Source of the DNA: Eledone cirrhosa
Taxonomy: Eukaryota
NCBI GenBank assembly: GCA_964016885.1
Contig: OZ024754.1
Coordinates: 18,476,001-18,540,000 of the forward strand
Reading direction: 5' to 3'
Length of the DNA stretch: 64,000 bases
Position numbers and translations under genes: made by a program. Position 1 is the stretch's first letter. Each line of letters starts with the position of its first letter. The notes beneath the pieces were generated by a model, which made no database searches, was not told the DNA's origin, and saw nothing but the letters and a program-made list of their open reading frames with translations. This document shows positions 29,863 to 50,860 of this stretch, one piece after another.

Positions 29863-29884
29863 AAGAAAGAAAAGCAACCCTTAC

Positions 29885-30011
29885 CGGAAGTAGCGAAGGA
29901 TTCTGAGATAATCCTCCTGTATTCTATCTTTTGGATTATCAACAAATTTCACAATTTTGTTCTTCAGATGTTCTTTACCATTGACATAATCATATAAATT
30001 ACCATTAAAAT
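29885..30011 (-). CDS. TRNT1: TRNT1-like (class II tRNA nucleotidyltransferase) internal exon, 127 nt: (D)[41 protein letters not shown](R)
   Basis: Minus strand reads ctctag|ATTTT...TTCCG|gtaag, with a CTAAC branch-like site ~30 nt upstream. Phase matches the preceding exon. Contains motif C (DYxxG) and motif D (EDYLR). Not in the ORF track. Confidence 0.92.
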
Positions 30012-30142
30012 CTAGAGAATTAAATATATTAATATATTAGGTTAGTTAACAGAATCAAAAATATTAATATTTTAGGTTGGTGAATAGAATTAAATATATT
30101 AATAGATTAGGATAGTTACCACAATAAAATATATTAATATAT
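30012..30142. repeat. AT-rich ~33-bp degenerate tandem repeat (about 4 copies) abutting the splice acceptor
   Basis: Repeated agaattaaatatattaatatattaggttagttaac-like units. Confidence 0.7.
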
Positions 30143-34249: not shown

Positions 34250-37015
34250 CCCTAGTGCTGGTGGCACGAATAAAAGCACCCGGTCCATGCTGAAAAATGT
34301 AGGTAATGGTAGTAGCATTCAGCTATTAAAAACCATGCCAAACTATGGGGTGGAGGGGGCCGCTGAGTCCAGTAAGACAACCCCTCTAGTGCTGGTGGCA
34401 CGAATAAAAGCACCCAGCCCATGCTGTAAAGTGGTGCTGGTGTTAGGAAGGGCATCCAACCAGTGTATTAATGCCAAAACAATTATGAGCACAACAACAA
34501 ATATATATCGCAATAACTGCGTGAACAGCAATAAAACTAACCATGTTAGGGCTGTGCACGGTAGTGGGGTGGCTAGTACGGCCATGTGTGAGAAACCCTG
34601 GACCGTCATCAAGCAATTGCACAACATGATTATAAACCATTTTTCATTGCAGAAAAAGAAGAAACAATGAAATACTCACATCTCAGGATTGCCACACTTA
34701 ATAATCTACCAATCAGGCGAGCACATAAGCCAAATTGACTTCTTGCTAGTTAGGCAGCAGGACAGATGGATGGTTCCAATACTAAGGCATACCTTGGGGA
34801 AGAATGTACTTTCCAGCATAGGTTAGTCGTTAGTGACATCTCAATAAGCAAGAGATGGAATGAGACATACAGGAAGGTGTGGAAAAGGAAGGTCTGGAAA
34901 GCTCTTCAAGATGTGTATGATGAAAAAGAAGATGAGTTAGAATCATATGACATAGATGATAACTGGAATTTCTTACGTGACAACTTACTGCAGGCTACTG
35001 AAGAAACTTGTGGCTGGAGCAGAGCTCCAACCAGACAGAGAGTGACTTGGTGGTGGAACAGCATGGTAGATAGGGCCATTAGAGACAAAAGACTAGCATG
35101 GAATGCTTGGAAAAATGGTGGGAGTAGAGAAGGATATACAGCTACTAAGAGAGAAGCTAGACGCCAGGTGTACTTAGCACGCAGCGAGGCTGAGAGTAGG
35201 AGGTTTGACAATGTTCTGCGACGGGAAGATCAGAGACATGCGGTTTTCCACATTGTAAGGCAGTGTGTCAATGCAAATCAGGATGTTGTTGGAGATAAGT
35301 GTGTCCGAAATGATACCAGTGTACTTAGTGTCACGAATGATCAGAAAAAGGAAGCCTGGAAATGTCATTATGAGAGACTGATGAATGTGGAGAAAGAATG
35401 GGAGAGAGAGAAATTACCCTCAGTAGATCCAACAGAGAGACCAGCTATTGAGATTGACGAATATAGGGTCCAAGAGGCAATTAAGGAAATGAAAAATGGT
35501 AAGGCCACTGGACCATCGGGGATAGTTGCTGAGATGCTGAAGGCATCAGGAGAAGTAGGAACTAAACTGGTCGCATGCATTGTCAATCAAGCTATATATG
35601 GCAGAGTCATACCCAAAGACTGGTGCAGCAGTATTCTCATAAATTGCTACAAAAGTAAAGGGAGATGCTCTGGAGAGGAGCAATTATAGGGGCATAAAAC
35701 AGATGGACCAGGTTATGAAAGTGCCAGAAAGAATATTAGTGCAACTGATTAGAGAAAGGGTCAAACTAGATAAGATGCAGTTTGGTTTTGTGCCTGGGAA
35801 GAGTACAACAGATGCCCCCTTCTTAGTGAGACAACTACAAGAGAGGTTCTTAGAGAAGAATAAGCCACTATACTTAGCTTTTGTTGACCTAGAGAAGACC
35901 TTTGATAGGGTACCCCGATCTGTCATCTGGTGGTCCCTAAGGAAACTAGGTATAGAGGAATGGCTTGTGAGGACTGTGCAAGCTATGTACAGGGGTGCTG
36001 TCAGTAAAGTGAGAACAGGAATGGAGTTTAGTGAGGAATTCCAGATACATCTAGGAGTACATCAAGGCCCGCTCTTGTTCATTATAGTTCTCTAAGCCAT
36101 AACAGAGGAGTTTAAGACTGGATGCCCATGGGAACTTCTCTATGCTGACGATCTGGTACTGATAGCAGAATCAGTAGAGGAGCTAGAGAATAAATTCTGG
36201 CTATGGAAACAGCAGTTGGAATCAAGAAGACTGAGAGTGAACCTTGCTAAGACTAAAGTGTTGATAAGTAGAAAAGAGGATAAAACTCTGATTCCATCAG
36301 GGAAATGGCCATGTTTGATATGTAGAAAAGGAGTTGACATAAATTCTATAAAATGTACACAATGCCGATCTTGGGTACACAAGAGATGTAGTGGGATAGC
36401 AGGCAAACTAACATGTAGGGAAAACTACATATGCAGTAGATGTACAGGGAAATTTGACAGTAGAAGTCGCATTGATAGACACATTTTTCAAATGCAGGTA
36501 GGATCTATAGAGGTGGTTGATAGCTTCCGATACTTAGGTGATCAGATTAGGGAGGATGCTGCTCCGAGGCCATAGTATCTAGAATAAGGATAGGTTGGAG
36601 GAAGTTTAGGGAACTGCTTCCTCTGCTGACAAAGAAGGGTTTCTCCCTGCGTACGAAAGGCCGGTTATATGATGCCTGTGTGAGATGTGTGATGCTGCAT
36701 GGTAGTGAGACATGGGCAGTAACTTCAGAGGATATGTCAATGTGCATGAATGACCAAGGATAGACGAGTTGAGAGAGAAACTGTGTATAAGAGGGATAGG
36801 CTGCAGTGTGCAGGAGAGAAGACTGTGATGGTATGGACATGTGATGCGCATGGAGGATGACCGCGGGGTAAGAAGTGCCAAGAAATCCCTGTAGAAGGAA
36901 GACACAGTAGAGGAAGACCACAAAAAATGTGGGCAGAGGCGGTGAGAGCGGACCTCACATCGCTGAAGCTCAAGGAGGAGATGACGAAGGACAGTGACGA
37001 ATGGAGAGATGCTGT
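34250..37015 (+). mobile_element. Decayed RTE LINE family A (5' UTR, partial endonuclease, RT, PHD finger; 3' tail missing)
   Basis: Frameshifted ORFs 34766-35689, 35703-36095 and 36216-36575: QFGFVPGKSTTDA, FVDLEKTFD, WELLYADD, C4HC3 finger, SFRYLG. Confidence 0.93.
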
Positions 37016-37336: not shown

Positions 37337-37466
37337 CAAGAAACATTGCATTAATTGTGAGATCTCTTTTGTTAGCATCTTGTTGCCAATAGAAACTAAA
37401 TTCTTGTGGAGAAGTCTCCTTCACAATTATGGAATCTGTTCGAAGTGTAGAAATTTCAAAGTTTTC
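37337..37466 (-). CDS. TRNT1: TRNT1-like internal exon, 130 nt: ENFEISTLRTDSIIVKETSPQEFSFYWQQDANKRDLTINAMFL
   Basis: ttcttgtag|GAAAAC...CTTG|gtaaag. Phase 0 in and phase 1 out, matching both neighbours. Aligns without gaps to ENFEITTLRID...DAERRDLTINSMFL of animal CCA-adding enzymes. Not in the ORF track. Confidence 0.92.
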
Positions 37467-37894
37467 CTACAAGAAATCAAATATCAATATATAAATGTTA
37501 TTCTTTTTTTGTATTTACTTTGCTTGAATTGTGTTACCTTTTCAGATATTTCCTTCTCATTTTTATCGACTGCTTTGCAGTCTAAGAAGTGGGTGATGTA
37601 AGCGGAACTATTTCATACCTCACAGCAACAATGTTTCATACGTGATTTCATTAAACAAACCAATCGTTTTAGATCGCGTATGAATACATTGTTGCCTCCT
37701 CCTTATAAAATCTTCTGGTTCACCAGAGAGATAACGCTCTTGGACAGCGAGATGAACCTAGGATAACTTCTACTGTAATCCTCCCATAATCCTGCTAATG
37801 AACATCAACAAAGCATATTCCAAATTTCTTGAATTGTTCTTCTACGTTATGTTTTCTATATGAGATAGTCTACTGTGTATAGAAATTTGGCCTT

Positions 37895-39717
37895 CATCAT
37901 CATCATTTTACGTCCGCTTTTCCCTGCTTGCAAGGGTGGGACGGGTCCTATTCCGCACAGCATCTCTCCACTTATCACGGTCCTTCGTCGTCATCACCGT
38001 GAGCTTCAGCGATCTGAGGACTGCTCTCATCACCTCCGCCCATGTTTTTCGTGGTCTACCTCTACTGCATCTTCCTTCAACTGGTATTTCCTGGCACTTC
38101 TTCACCCATCGGTCATCCTCCATGCGCATCACATGTCCATACCATCGCAGTCTTCTCTCCCACACACTACAACTTATCCCTCTTATACTCAGTTTCTTTC
38201 TCAACTCGTCCATGCTCGGTCGTTCATGCACATTGACATTGCAGATCCAACTGAACATGCTTGCCCCACTTCTCTCCAGCCGTCGCATATGCTCTGCAGT
38301 TGCTGCCCGTGTCTCACTATCATGCAGCATCGCGCATCTCACACAGGCATCATATAACCGGCCTTTCGTATGCAGGGAGAAACCCTTCTTTGTCAACAGA
38401 GGAAGCAGCTCCCCAAACTTCTTCCAATCTGTCCTTATTCTAGATACCATGGCCTCGGAACACCCACCTCCCATGCTAATCTGATCACCTAGGTACCGGA
38501 AGCTATCAACCACTTCTATAACACCCACCTGCATTTGAAAAATGTGTCTATCAATGCGACTTCTACTGTCTAATTTCCCTGTACATCTACTGCATACATA
38601 TTTCTCCCTACCTGTTAGTTTGCCTGCTATCCCACTACATATCCCATGCACCCAAGATCCGCACTGTGTACATTTTATAGAATTTGTGCCAGTTCCCCTT
38701 CCGCATATCGAACATGGCCATCTCCCTGACGGAATCAGAGTTTTGTCCTCTCTTCTACTTATCAACACTTTTGTCTTAGTTAGGTTCACTCTCAGTCCCC
38801 TTGCTTCCAACTGCTGTTTCCATAGCCAGAATTTATTCTCTAGCTCCTCTACTGATTCCGCTATAAGAACCAGATTGTCAGCATAGAGAAGTTCCCATGG
38901 ACAGCCAGACTTAAACTCCTCTGTTATGGCTTGGAGGACTATAATGAACAAGAGCGAGCTGAGGACCGAACCTTGATGTACTCCTACTTGTATCTGGAAT
39001 TCCTCACTAAACTCCATTCCCACCCTCACTCCACCGACAGCACCTCCGCACAAAGCCTGCACTGTACTCACAAGCCATTCCTCAACACCCAGTCTTCCCA
39101 GGGACCACCAGATGACAGATCGGGGTACCCTATCAAAGGCCCTCGCCAGGTGAACAGAAGCTAAGTATAGTGGCTTATTCTTCTCTAAGAACCTCTCTTG
39201 TAATTGTCTCACCAAGAAGAGGGCATCTGTTGTACTTTTCCCAGGCACAAAACCAAACTGCATCTCATCTAATTTGACCCTTTCTCTATTTAGTTGCACT
39301 AATATTCTCTCTGGCACTTTTATAACCTGATCCATCTGTTTTATGCCCCTATAATTGCTCCTCTCCAGAGCACCCCCCCACCCTTGTAGCAATTTATGAG
39401 AATACTGCTGCACCAGTCTTTAGGTATGGCACCGCCATATATAGCCTGATTGATGATGTGTGCAACCAATTTAGTGCCTACGTCCCCTGATGCCTTCAGC
39501 ATCCCAGCAACCATCCCCAACGGTCCAGCGGCCTTACCATTTCTCATCTCCCTAATCGCCTCTTGGACCCTATATTCGTCAATCTCAATAGCTGGTCCCT
39601 CTGTCAGATCTACTGAGGGTAATCTCTCTCCCATTCGTTCTCCACATTCATCAGTCTCTCATAATGACATTTCCAGGCCTCCTTTTTCTGATCATTTGTG
39701 ACACTAAGTACACCGGC
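37895..39717 (-). mobile_element. 5'-truncated RTE LINE family A with clustered A>G hypermutation
   Basis: ORFs 39341-39634 and 37908-39413 (RT, PHD, C-terminus) and an (ATG)n tail at 37895. Many K>R/G, R>G, E>G, Y>C changes relative to the 34.7-37.0 kb copy. Confidence 0.95.
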
Positions 39718-39917
39718 TTTCTACAATAAATTTATGTTTATAGTAAATTGAGTGTTAAAAAGGATAATTATTTATAAATGGATGTCAGAAGCCTGTCGCT
39801 GTAAGTAAAACGTATTAAATAATCATTTGACTCCTCTTTTCCCTATATGTTTATTCTCACTGATCATTTATATACACATATTCCTATACACAAAATATAG
39901 TTACAGACACACAAATA

Positions 39918-40235
39918 TAATTAATGAGTTACCTCGTCATTAAATGATGTGTTATCTGGCCAGTAATTAATTAATTAATGAGTTACCTAGTCCTTAATTA
40001 AGGTATGTGTTACCTGGCCATTAATTAATGAGTTACTTGGTCATTAATTACTTAAGGTATGTTTTATGGCCATTATCGATAAAATAAAGTACCAGTAATG
40101 CACTGGGTAATTGCTGGCCTTGTGCCTAAAGTAGAAACAATTAATTAATTAATGAGTTACCTGGTCATTAATTAATTAAGGAATGTGTTACCTGGTCATC
40201 AAGTAATTAAGTAACGTGTTACCTTGTCATTAATC
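39918..40235. repeat. Degenerate tandem repeat derived from the exon end/splice donor, interrupted by a SINE 3' fragment (40075-40140)
   Basis: About 8 copies of gttacct(g)gtcattaatta, the last of which is the real exon junction. Confidence 0.75.
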
Positions 40236-40561
40236 CTTGCAGTAATAGTTCTATGTTTTTCCCCATTTATATTAATCATCCTGATCCCTTCTTCAGTAAA
40301 CATCATCTTCATCTCATCAGGATTTGCTGTTGTAGCAAAATCAATGTCAGTAGGTTGTATCCCTATTAAAAGATCTCGTACAGCCCCACCGGTAATCCTC
40401 AGCATATGTTGGTGTTTATCGAACACTTTGATAAGTACTTCCAACTCTGGAGTAAACAGGGCGTGGAATTCAGGAGTATCTATTTTGGTTGTTACTACAC
40501 CTGTCATCTTCTCTCTTCCTTCTGTCATCTTATTGGGAGGTTGTTCTCCAGTTATGTTTTT
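40223..40561 (-). CDS. TRNT1: TRNT1-like exon with motif A: ...[29 protein letters not shown]...[12 protein letters not shown]...DIDFATT...[14 protein letters not shown]
   Basis: GGAVRD and the catalytic DxD are intact. Donor AAG|gtaac at 40222. Acceptor AG either at 40563-40562 (in frame) or 40571-40570 (then ATG 40528 would be the start). Confidence 0.93.
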
Positions 40562-48889: not shown

Positions 48890-50500
48890 GTATGACCATG
48901 CTGTAAAATGGAGGGGTAGAGAGGGCCCATGAGTCCAGTAAGACATCCTCTCTAGTGCTGGTGGCACAAATAAAAGCACCCAATCCATGCTGTAAAGTGA
49001 TGCTAGTGTTAGGAAGGGCATCCAACCACTGTATCAATGCCAAAACGATTATAAGCACAGGAACAAGTATATAGGAACAACAAAAATATGAAGACATCGC
49101 ATCTCAGAGATGCAACACTTAATGTTGGCACTCTCACAGGTAGATCTGCTGAAATAGCAGAGATGTTGGAGAGAAGGCAGGTGGATGTGTGCTGCGTGCA
49201 AGAGGTGAGATGGAGAGGCGCCTTTGCGAGACTAGTCGCAGGCAAACATCTTAGCTATAAGCTTTTCTGGGTAGGTAAGGATGATGGGTCAGGGGGAGTA
49301 GGCATTTTTCTGGCTGAGAGATGGATCAATAAGACAATAGAGGTAGTTCGAGTTAGTAATCGAATAATTAAGCTTAGATTAGTTGTAGGCAGGAGACTAC
49401 TGACAATCATCTCTGCCTATGTTCCCCAAGCAGGCCTAGGCAAAGAAGAGAAAGACTGCTTTTACGAGCAACTTTTACAAACAACCGCAATGACAGAGGA
49501 CGGAGACATCATTATGCTAGCAGGGCACTTCAATGGTCAAGTTGGACAGCTCCAGGATGGTTACACTGGAGTACATGGTGGGCACGGTTACGGCTCAGGA
49601 AATGAAGGAGTGAGACTTCTTGAACATTGTGATGCAAGTACACTGACTATTTACAACACTAACTTCTAGAAACCTGCCAACCATCTAATAACCTACAAAT
49701 TAGGCGAGCACATAAGCCAGATTGACTTCTTACTAGTTAGGCAGCAGGACAGGCAGATGGTGTCAAATACCAAGGCATATCCTGGGGAAGAATGTACCCC
49801 ACAGCATAGGTTAGTCGTTAGTGATATCTCAGTAAGCAAGAGATGGAATGAGACATACAGGATGGTGTGGAGAAGAAAGGTCAGGAAGCTAAAAGACCTT
49901 TCACTAAAATACAAATTTAGAAAAGCCCTTCAAGATGTGTATGACGAAAAAGAAGACGATTTAGAGTTGCATGACATAGATAATAACTGGAATTTCTTAC
50001 GTGACAACTTACTGCAGGCTACTGATGAAACTTGTGGCTGGAGAAGAGCTCCAACCAGACAGAGAGTGACCTGGTGGTGGAACAGCACAGTAGATAAGGC
50101 CATTAGAGACAAAAGACTAGCATGGAAGGCTTGGAAAAAGGGTGGGAGTAGAGAAGGATATACAGCTACTAAGAGAGAAGCTAGACGTCAGGTGTACTTA
50201 GCACGCAGGGAGGCTGAGAGTAGGAGGTTTGCCAATGTTCTGTGACGGGGAGATCAGAGGCGTGCGGTGTTCCACATTGCAAGGCAGTGTGTCAATGCAC
50301 ATCAAGATGTTGTTGGAGATAAGTGTGTCCGGAATGATGCCGGTGTACTTAGTGTCACGAATGAACAGAAAAAGGAGGCCTGGAAATGTCATTATGAGAG
50401 ACTGATGAATGTGGAGAACGAATGGGAGAGAGAGAAATTACCCTCAGTAGATCCGACAGAGGGACCAGCTATTGAGATTGACGAATATAGGGTCCAAGAG
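48890..50500 (+). mobile_element. RTE family A 5' half (5' UTR, endonuclease, linker)
   Basis: ORFs 49088-49669 (TLNVGTL, CVQEVRW) and 49757-50245; near-identical to 34.4-35.5 kb. Confidence 0.92.
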
Positions 50501-50860
50501 GCCTGCTTGGGGAGCATAGGCAGAGATGATTGTCAGTAGTCTCCTGCCTACAACTAATCTAAGCTTAATTATTCTATTATTAACTCGAACTACCTCTATT
50601 GTCTTATCGATCCATCTCTCAGCCAGGAAAATGCCTACTCCCCCTAACCCATCATCCTTACCTACCCAGAAAAGCTTATAACTAAGATGTTTGCCTGCAA
50701 TTAGTCTTGCTGAGGCACCTCTCCATCTCACCTCTTGCATGCAGCACACATCCACATGTCTTCTCTCTAGCATCTCCACTATCTCACCAGATCTACCTGT
50801 TAGAGTACCAACATTAAGTGTTGCAACTCTGAGATGCGACGTCTTCATATTTTTGTTCCT
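50497..50860 (-). mobile_element. Inverted RTE family A endonuclease N-terminal fragment fused to the previous copy
   Basis: ORF 50444-50899 MKTSHLRVATLNVGTL...SAYAPQAG. Junction at palindromic aggcct. Confidence 0.9.

Follow-up and report, generated by a model that had tools for sequence, protein, structure and literature searches.

The window analysed here is a stretch of 64,000 nucleotides from Eledone cirrhosa (GCA_964016885.1, contig OZ024754.1, positions 18,476,001 to 18,540,000 of the forward strand). It contains a retrotransposon copy, hereafter the target, in which G stands at many sites where other copies of its family have A. The question raised by this locus is whether LINE RNA was hyper-edited by ADAR and then reverse-transcribed into the germline genome, as a sequence-only reading of the window had proposed, or whether some other process produced these changes. 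The target, its parts and the copy that serves as its control are as follows.

37896..39714, minus strand: target LINE copy, 5'-truncated, RTE-type, with 36-38 private sense-strand A>G changes
37908..39419, minus strand: stop-free frame of 503 aa with an RVT_1 domain (E 3e-22; 3.1e-22) and a PHD-like finger
37896..37906, minus strand: (ATG)n 3' tail, typical of the family
37889..37895, no strand: 3' copy of a candidate 7-bp target-site duplication (TSD), with one mismatch to the 5' copy
39715..39721, no strand: 5' copy of the candidate TSD, overlapping a 3-nt microhomology with the truncation point
34690..37015, plus strand: sibling family copy, inverted relative to the target, used as control

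The RTE-type label is consistent with the anatomy read from these sequences, which includes a reverse transcriptase (RT), an endonuclease, a tail, a truncation and a TSD. The 5' half of the target has been truncated and with it the endonuclease region; an AP-endonuclease domain (Exo_endo_phos) lies upstream of the RT in a 93%-identical family piece at 48951-50502. The 7-bp repeats that flank the target are a probable TSD. Of 29 young copies, 15 have a candidate TSD of at least 6 nt, many of these TSDs lying within AT repeats and hence weak, and a search for a paralogous empty site matching the target's flank found none. Young copies (loci L091-L180) have often inserted in (AT)n microsatellites. 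Apart from A>G, the private divergence of the target is about 3.0%, that of a middle-aged copy. Its 503-aa open frame was considered as a special feature and rejected: it ranks 6th longest among 56 copies of the same age, and the non-A>G changes within it (35 nonsynonymous, 10 synonymous) appear consistent with neutral decay. Among the A>G changes 22 of 36 are nonsynonymous (61%, against 72% expected), with no clear selection.

The target was scored column by column against the 20 nearest of 168 family copies, after self loci, seven duplicates and one member of each of two near-identical pairs had been left out. By this yardstick 38 of 544 A have changed to G, where about 7 changes were expected (binomial p = 6.1e-13), which bears out the dense sense-strand A>G first noticed by eye. 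The other changes comprise 8 T>C among 394 T, 19 G>A, 14 C>T, 1 A>C, 5 A>T and 1 T>G, and the A>G rate differs from the T>C rate with a Fisher p of 0.00037. With an alternative set of neighbours the counts are 36 A>G and 7 T>C. The A>G changes fall in the following groups.

39504..39548, minus strand: A>G cluster, sites 39548, 39543, 39512, 39504
39375..39383, minus strand: A>G cluster, sites 39383, 39379-39377
39021..39147, minus strand: densest A>G tract, sites 39147, 39142, 39099, 39090, 39057, 39049, 39047, 39035, 39032, 39031, 39021
38644..38752, minus strand: A>G tract, sites 38752, 38722, 38702, 38698, 38697, 38664, 38660, 38649, 38645, 38644
38266..38448, minus strand: scattered A>G, sites 38448, 38414, 38269, 38266, with few nearer the 3' end

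At 39375..39383 a stretch of A and G has become a run of G one base shorter than in other copies, a frameshift upstream of the open frame. The changes are clustered: 18 pairs of neighbouring sites lie no more than 10 nt apart, where 7.0 were expected (none of 5,000 permutations was as high), and the longest run is 7 consecutive A>G. They also depend on context. A 5' neighbour of U, A or C had been claimed for most sites, and 5' G is indeed depleted: the proportion of As changed is 11.1% after T, 11.8% after A, 6.1% after C and 2.1% after G (p = 0.0004). A 3' G had been noted at many sites; in the target 10.2% of As are changed before G, 7.6% before A, 4.2% before C and 1.7% before T (p = 0.027). 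In ordinary copies A>G is flat across 5' neighbours, at 6.6-7.7 per 1,000.

An intact subfamily sharing these Gs was sought and none was found among the copies scored. Over 1 kb the best of 40 copies scored out of 5,918 candidates is 92% identical, and over the densest cluster the best of 40 scored out of 1,020 candidates are 89-90% identical; no scored subfamily therefore has the target's Gs. APOBEC-type sense G>A was rejected as a source of the differences, with other copies carrying A where the target has G and the 19 G>A changes of the target being ordinary.

The sibling was the original basis for counting. It is identical to the target at 1,512 of 1,694 aligned sites, and the differences, read from sibling to target, are 69 A>G, 23 G>A, 21 T>C and 23 C>T. 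When the 69 sites with G in the target and A in the sibling are polarised against other copies, 33 prove to be true A>G, 30 reflect G>A decay of the sibling and 6 fall in polymorphic columns, so that the claim of A>G in the target for every change is borne out for about half of them. The hand count of about 16 A>G in 39020-39150 is reproduced as a number, but it splits into 11 true A>G, 4 sites of sibling decay and 1 polymorphic site. The cluster described at 39370-39560 retains 8 true A>G and loses 6 sites to sibling decay and 2 to polymorphism; that at 38640-38730 also retains 8, and loses 2 to sibling decay and 0 to polymorphism. Comparison with the sibling alone thus overstates the signal, which is real though smaller. 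The sibling's own spectrum is ordinary (9 A>G, 9 T>C, 28 G>A and 27 C>T), with an asymmetry of at most 1.4-fold.

The genome (3.0 Gb, 1,796 contigs) was searched for other such copies. The family is represented by at least 3,500 exact matches to an A-free 19-mer, and the copies compared form a single ladder in the family tree, from old to young copies about 98% identical, with the target among the older ones on a long terminal branch. Among the 168 copies only one further A>G outlier was seen (L175, p = 2e-7), which came from a position-ordered sample, as 1 of 87; the best T>C outlier reached p = 0.001 only. The whole genome was then scanned with three motifs, each with G in place of five conserved As and up to 3 mismatches allowed, and with matched motifs that had C in place of five Ts. 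The A>G motifs gave 2, 4 and 5 matches and the T>C motifs 0, 0 and 0. Ten of the 11 A>G matches lie in five family copies; the other, L257, was rejected as a simple-repeat false positive. The third A>G motif was designed with knowledge of the sites changed in earlier matches and yielded no new copy. As a strand control, five motif-found copies against zero gives p of about 0.03, and outside the windows of the first two motifs the motif-found copies are still extreme (p from 8e-6 to 1e-82). The scan for further copies with sense-strand A>G that had been suggested for this locus thus yielded five, and no antisense counterpart. The six copies have these A>G and T>C counts.

L175: 23 A>G, 3 T>C (25 and 4 by the 168-copy yardstick)
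Target: 36 A>G, 7 T>C
L181: 33 A>G, 2 T>C
L184, contig C3 (299,028,353-299,031,374): 124 A>G, 7 T>C
L186, contig C22 (12,774,527-12,776,012): 78 A>G, 0 T>C
L185, contig C5 (28,815,458-28,816,327): 117 A>G, 2 T>C

The target is missed by all three A>G motifs and is the weakest but one of the six examples; L186, L185 and L184, all beyond the window, provide the strongest evidence. The six are independent copies, on five contigs, two of them on the plus and four on the minus strand, and the A>G changes are always on the sense strand of the element. In the most edited copy, L185, 117 of 269 As (43%) have changed, and the longest A>G runs are 7-35 in the edited copies against at most 4 in ordinary ones. 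When the six are pooled, 411 of 3,203 A have become G, compared with 21 T>C among 2,283 T, 6 A>C and 11 A>T. The pooled rates by 5' neighbour are 20.9% for T, 18.2% for A, 11.6% for C and 5.2% for G; by 3' neighbour they are 15.3% for G, 12.6% for A, 11.8% for C and 9.9% for T. The copies share 159 edited sites, against 142.5±6.2 with context and block controlled (p = 0.007), but this excess is inflated by motif ascertainment and is therefore not used as evidence.

All-against-all scans with the yardstick, covering 421,963 positions (mostly the target's family), 122,510 and 33,789 positions, returned only the known edited copies and false positives, which were microsatellites and one subfamily variant; no second repeat family with the pattern appeared in these small samples. 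The hyper-mutated class is rare, at least 6 of at least 3,500 copies, and a rough guess at its size is ten to a few dozen.

The age of the copies bears on when the changes arose. A>G aside, L186 differs from the youngest copies by 0.1-0.3%; besides its 78 A>G it shows 2 other changes, and both a tail and a 7-bp TSD are present. A copy of near-zero age with the full load must have acquired that load at or before insertion. In L184 an 11-nt segment is duplicated at a deletion junction, and the Gs in the two copies of the segment are identical, which makes them older than the junction. Across the six copies the non-A>G divergence spans 0.14% to 3.0%, which implies that the process was repeated during the history of the family.

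The strand points to the molecule that was changed. In target-primed reverse transcription the first DNA strand to be made is antisense. Damaged adenines in the cDNA would then read as T>C on the sense strand; by this established mechanism, and some inference from it, sense A>G points to the RNA template. The 3' end is little affected. In the last 75 nt of the six copies 1 of 121 As has changed, and A>G is sparse over the 3' 500 nt in most of them, so the depletion is better described as a gradient than as a proven protected site.

Several of the edited copies have unusual junctions: deletion or chimeric junctions occur in 3 of the 6, compared with 3 of 53 young and 20 of 113 older ordinary copies. 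L186 has an internal deletion of about 130 nt (C22:12,775,225-12,775,290) and L184 one of about 200 nt (C3:299,029,425-299,029,490), each with a short templated duplication at the junction; L186 has an additional short duplication at its 5' end. These junctions are possibly template jumps on edited or duplexed RNA. The 3' end of L185 (C5:28,815,230-28,816,327) is fused to a short, apparently unedited element with the family's 3' tail, a possible template-switch chimera, and a 43-nt G/GT-rich insertion lies within an edited tract.

The explanation that best fits these results is that LINE RNA hyper-edited by ADAR was reverse-transcribed into germline DNA, and we give it a probability of roughly 0.85. 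It is the explanation first proposed for the target, and it is supported by the A>G excess, by the unshared Gs and by the five further copies. Family RNA would become double-stranded, ADAR would deaminate many of its adenosines in patches, and the RT of the element would read inosine as G in target-primed reverse transcription, which would give rise to a new germline insertion. RNA edited at 43% of its As, as L185 implies, would be unable to encode its own working protein. Either editing would follow translation, or the unedited 3' end would allow the RNA to be mobilised in trans, with protein translated from a message that was unedited or had yet to be edited.

An antisense transcript may have supplied the duplex partner, as may an inverted family copy within the donor transcript. 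The latter is the likelier, since cis-antisense duplexes are reportedly rarely edited (PMC13445718). Internal RNA structure was rejected as the cause of the sites: no helix longer than 10 bp was found in the family RNA, and within it pairing is no more frequent for changed than for unchanged As (0.37 against 0.40, p = 0.23). The pooled 5' preference matches the depletion of upstream G described for hyper-edited RNA across metazoans. The 3' neighbour of hyper-edited sites is described as G in mammals and A in invertebrates, and the pooled lean to G (15.3%, against 12.6% for A) departs from the reported invertebrate pattern, a point against the ADAR reading (excerpts of PMC5625713).

ADAR had also been cast as a dead-on-arrival mutator of retrotransposons. 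This was overstated and holds weakly, because the target is 5'-truncated and without its endonuclease anyway, its catalytic YADD>YADN change is no A>G but a G>A at a CpG, and edited copies make up only a small minority. Judged from its sequence, a long copy such as L184, extending 3.2 kb or more in the 5' direction and with 64 nonsynonymous A>G in the part first scored, can be wrecked by editing, but such copies are rare.

Error-prone synthesis at insertion is the alternative that survives best, although we regard it as very unlikely. The RT would misincorporate under dNTP imbalance, or the second strand would be made by an enzyme resembling polymerase eta. Such synthesis would likewise be strand-specific and dated to insertion, the 5' A/T preference resembles the WA motif of polymerase eta, and the frequency of deletion and chimeric junctions among the edited copies would fit. 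The mutations that polymerase eta makes at the A of WA include many A>T and A>C transversions, and reverse transcriptases are not known to favour placing C opposite A. The spectrum is instead almost purely A>G (411 against 6 A>C and 11 A>T; in L186, 78 against 2 others), and it is this purity that makes polymerase error unlikely; clustered mutagenesis by polymerase eta was rejected on the same counts. The change of up to 43% of As in L185 and a 5' preference graded T>A>C>G also argue against it.

The target lies in an intron of a host gene resembling TRNT1, the CCA-adding enzyme, and is sense to its transcript. Three TRNT1-like exons were recognised.

37338..37466, minus strand: TRNT1-like exon between the inverted copies
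40226-40510, minus strand: further TRNT1-like exon
29884-30015, minus strand: further TRNT1-like exon

These exons are in frame and have GT donors, as in a spliced gene. An intronless paralogue of 464 aa (L258, G000:C14:11,028,883-11,032,038) lies 7.5 Mb away on the same contig, and the exons are 56-70% identical to it in protein; it is likely a retrogene. Neither the window nor the 200 kb below it yielded an exon for residues 227-464, and the spliced copy may be incomplete or in the course of being replaced. Directly below the third exon is a minisatellite array of 19/21-bp units that extends for about 51 kb, from positions 1-28571 of the window on to about G000:C14:18,453,589. The sibling (34690-37015, plus) and the target (37896-39714, minus) flank the exon at 37338-37466. 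In pre-mRNA this inverted pair could form a long hairpin, with RNA editing, circular RNA or exon skipping as candidate outcomes.

Such a hairpin suggests another explanation, in which the target was rewritten in place: the host pre-mRNA would be edited by ADAR and serve as template for repair, or ADAR would act on the DNA of an R-loop. The pair is well placed for this. The two copies form a 1.7-kb inverted pair, are about 86% identical, 0.9 kb apart and in adjoining introns, and ADAR is reported to act on the DNA strand of model hybrids (excerpts of PMC12925331). Rewriting in place should touch both arms, however, and the sibling shows only 9 T>C among 484 T, with no ADAR-like context. Near-identical inverted neighbours are absent from four of the six insertion sites: L184 has no family copy within the 40 kb examined, and the nearby inverted relatives of L175, L181 and L185 are only 65-72% identical. 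The inverted neighbours of L186 span only its 3' part and not its 5' tracts. Editing driven by host transcripts should also yield copies with sense T>C equally often, and the three T>C motifs found none. With an unedited sibling arm and four copies that lack a suitable neighbour, in-place rewriting merits even less credence than error-prone synthesis.

The changes might also be absent from the DNA, as an artefact of polishing with RNA-derived reads or of systematic base-calling error; systematic A/G sequencing errors have entered reference sequences before (excerpts of PMC2873906). Eighteen sequencing runs match part of 38600-39600, the best with a share of 0.31 and none with half or more, but about 40% of the 31-mers also occur in other copies, so this share is uninformative about the Gs. 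None of the listed runs is recorded as RNA, and the best-matching one may come from the sample used for the assembly itself. Four runs (X1, X2, X4 and X19) were assembled at 97%. The contigs span both junction regions and the flanks (100%, depth 7-9), those from X1 and X2 matching the flanks and the 3' junction exactly; others are high-depth short pieces from other copies, and of the 24 pieces listed out of 12,440 none runs across a private cluster. Contigs lacking such a cluster are expected, as the target's private runs of 31-mers do not exceed 180 nt and rare variants are lost from contigs of this kind. An artefact should be indifferent to the element's strand and should also affect the sibling within that hairpin, and what is seen is six sense and zero antisense. 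The duplicated junction of L184 repeats the same Gs, which again argues against error. On the grounds of strand above all, an artefact seems as improbable as rewriting in place.

Least credible of all is ordinary evolution, whether through a G-rich subfamily, gene conversion, GC-biased conversion or a transcription-linked A>G asymmetry: the target is intronic and sense to its host gene, and 36 of the 69 apparent A>G sites are indeed subfamily polymorphism or sibling decay, but no scored copy has the target's Gs, neither T>C (8), A>C (1) nor T>G (1) is raised in the target, the sibling in the next intron has an asymmetry of at most 1.4-fold, and L186 had no time to gather 78 changes.

If LINE RNA was hyper-edited by ADAR before insertion, then edited RNA serves as template for germline retrotransposition, and RNA edits become heritable changes in DNA. 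ADAR would be a mutator of non-LTR retrotransposon RNA in transit in the germline, the RNA-level counterpart of DNA editing by APOBEC. The motif and activity of ADAR would be readable over evolutionary time from DNA alone, here in copies of 0.1% to 3% divergence. The genomes of animals probably hold an overlooked, datable fossil record of this kind, a fraction of LINE insertions copied from ADAR-hyper-edited RNA. The comparison of sense A>G with sense T>C in each copy offers a simple, genome-only assay across families, ages and species. Since the class is rare, it carries more weight as a record and as a mechanism than as a strong brake on transposition.

The comparisons with known systems draw on portions of the papers cited. 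RTE-2_OV and other RTE LINEs of octopus are recently active families (PMC9115989; PMC13282606); the target's family is likened to them by description, as RTE-type with an endonuclease, an RT and a zinc-binding region. The portions of PMC9115989, PMC13282606 and PMC7827607 at hand describe no such A>G copies, and in that of PMC13282606 the terms "editing", "ADAR" and "hypermut" do not occur. A search of the full-text literature, short on subscription papers and supplements, returned no report of ADAR-type A>G LINE copies in a germline genome. A 2016 review considered the mutation of retrotransposons by ADAR logical but not determined (PMC4982230), and a cephalopod genome paper named transposon defence as an unexplored role of editing (PMC9068888).

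Octopus is known for very high levels of RNA hyper-editing (PMC5625713), and cephalopod editing beyond the nervous system targets repeats (PMC9068888). ADAR hyper-editing of repeat RNA shares with the copies described here the clusters, the pure A>G, the depletion of upstream G and the repeat substrate. It is normally seen in RNA against an unedited genome, whereas here the changes are in the genome sequence and the 3' lean is to G rather than A. In human cells ADAR also meets the LINE ribonucleoprotein, but restriction of L1 by ADAR1 is independent of editing, and editing of L1 RNA was not detected (PMC5224506).

APOBEC "DNA editing" of LTR retrotransposons and LINEs has been reported in vertebrate genomes (PMC4866542; PMC3880073), and the G>A footprints that APOBEC leaves in copies of retroelements are well documented (also PMC2873906). 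These are likewise strand-biased, clustered and context-dependent deaminase footprints that arose before integration and are fixed in single copies. They consist of sense G>A produced by cytidine deamination of cDNA, and they are vertebrate-specific, with invertebrates as the negative control; the sense A>G seen here points to the RNA template.

A further parallel is found in avian retroviruses. A-to-G hypermutation was described in Rous-associated virus as well as in avian leukosis virus (Hajjar and Linial, 1995; Felder et al., 1994; both through excerpts of PMC12925331), so that A>G fixed in DNA is already known from proviruses. As proposed for the LINE copies, the changes are of ADAR type, affect up to about half of the As and entered DNA by reverse transcription. 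The avian cases concern retroviruses in which the U3 region and an inverted repeat were edited, whereas the elements described here are inherited non-LTR retrotransposons, in several independent copies of varied ages and with no internal hairpin.
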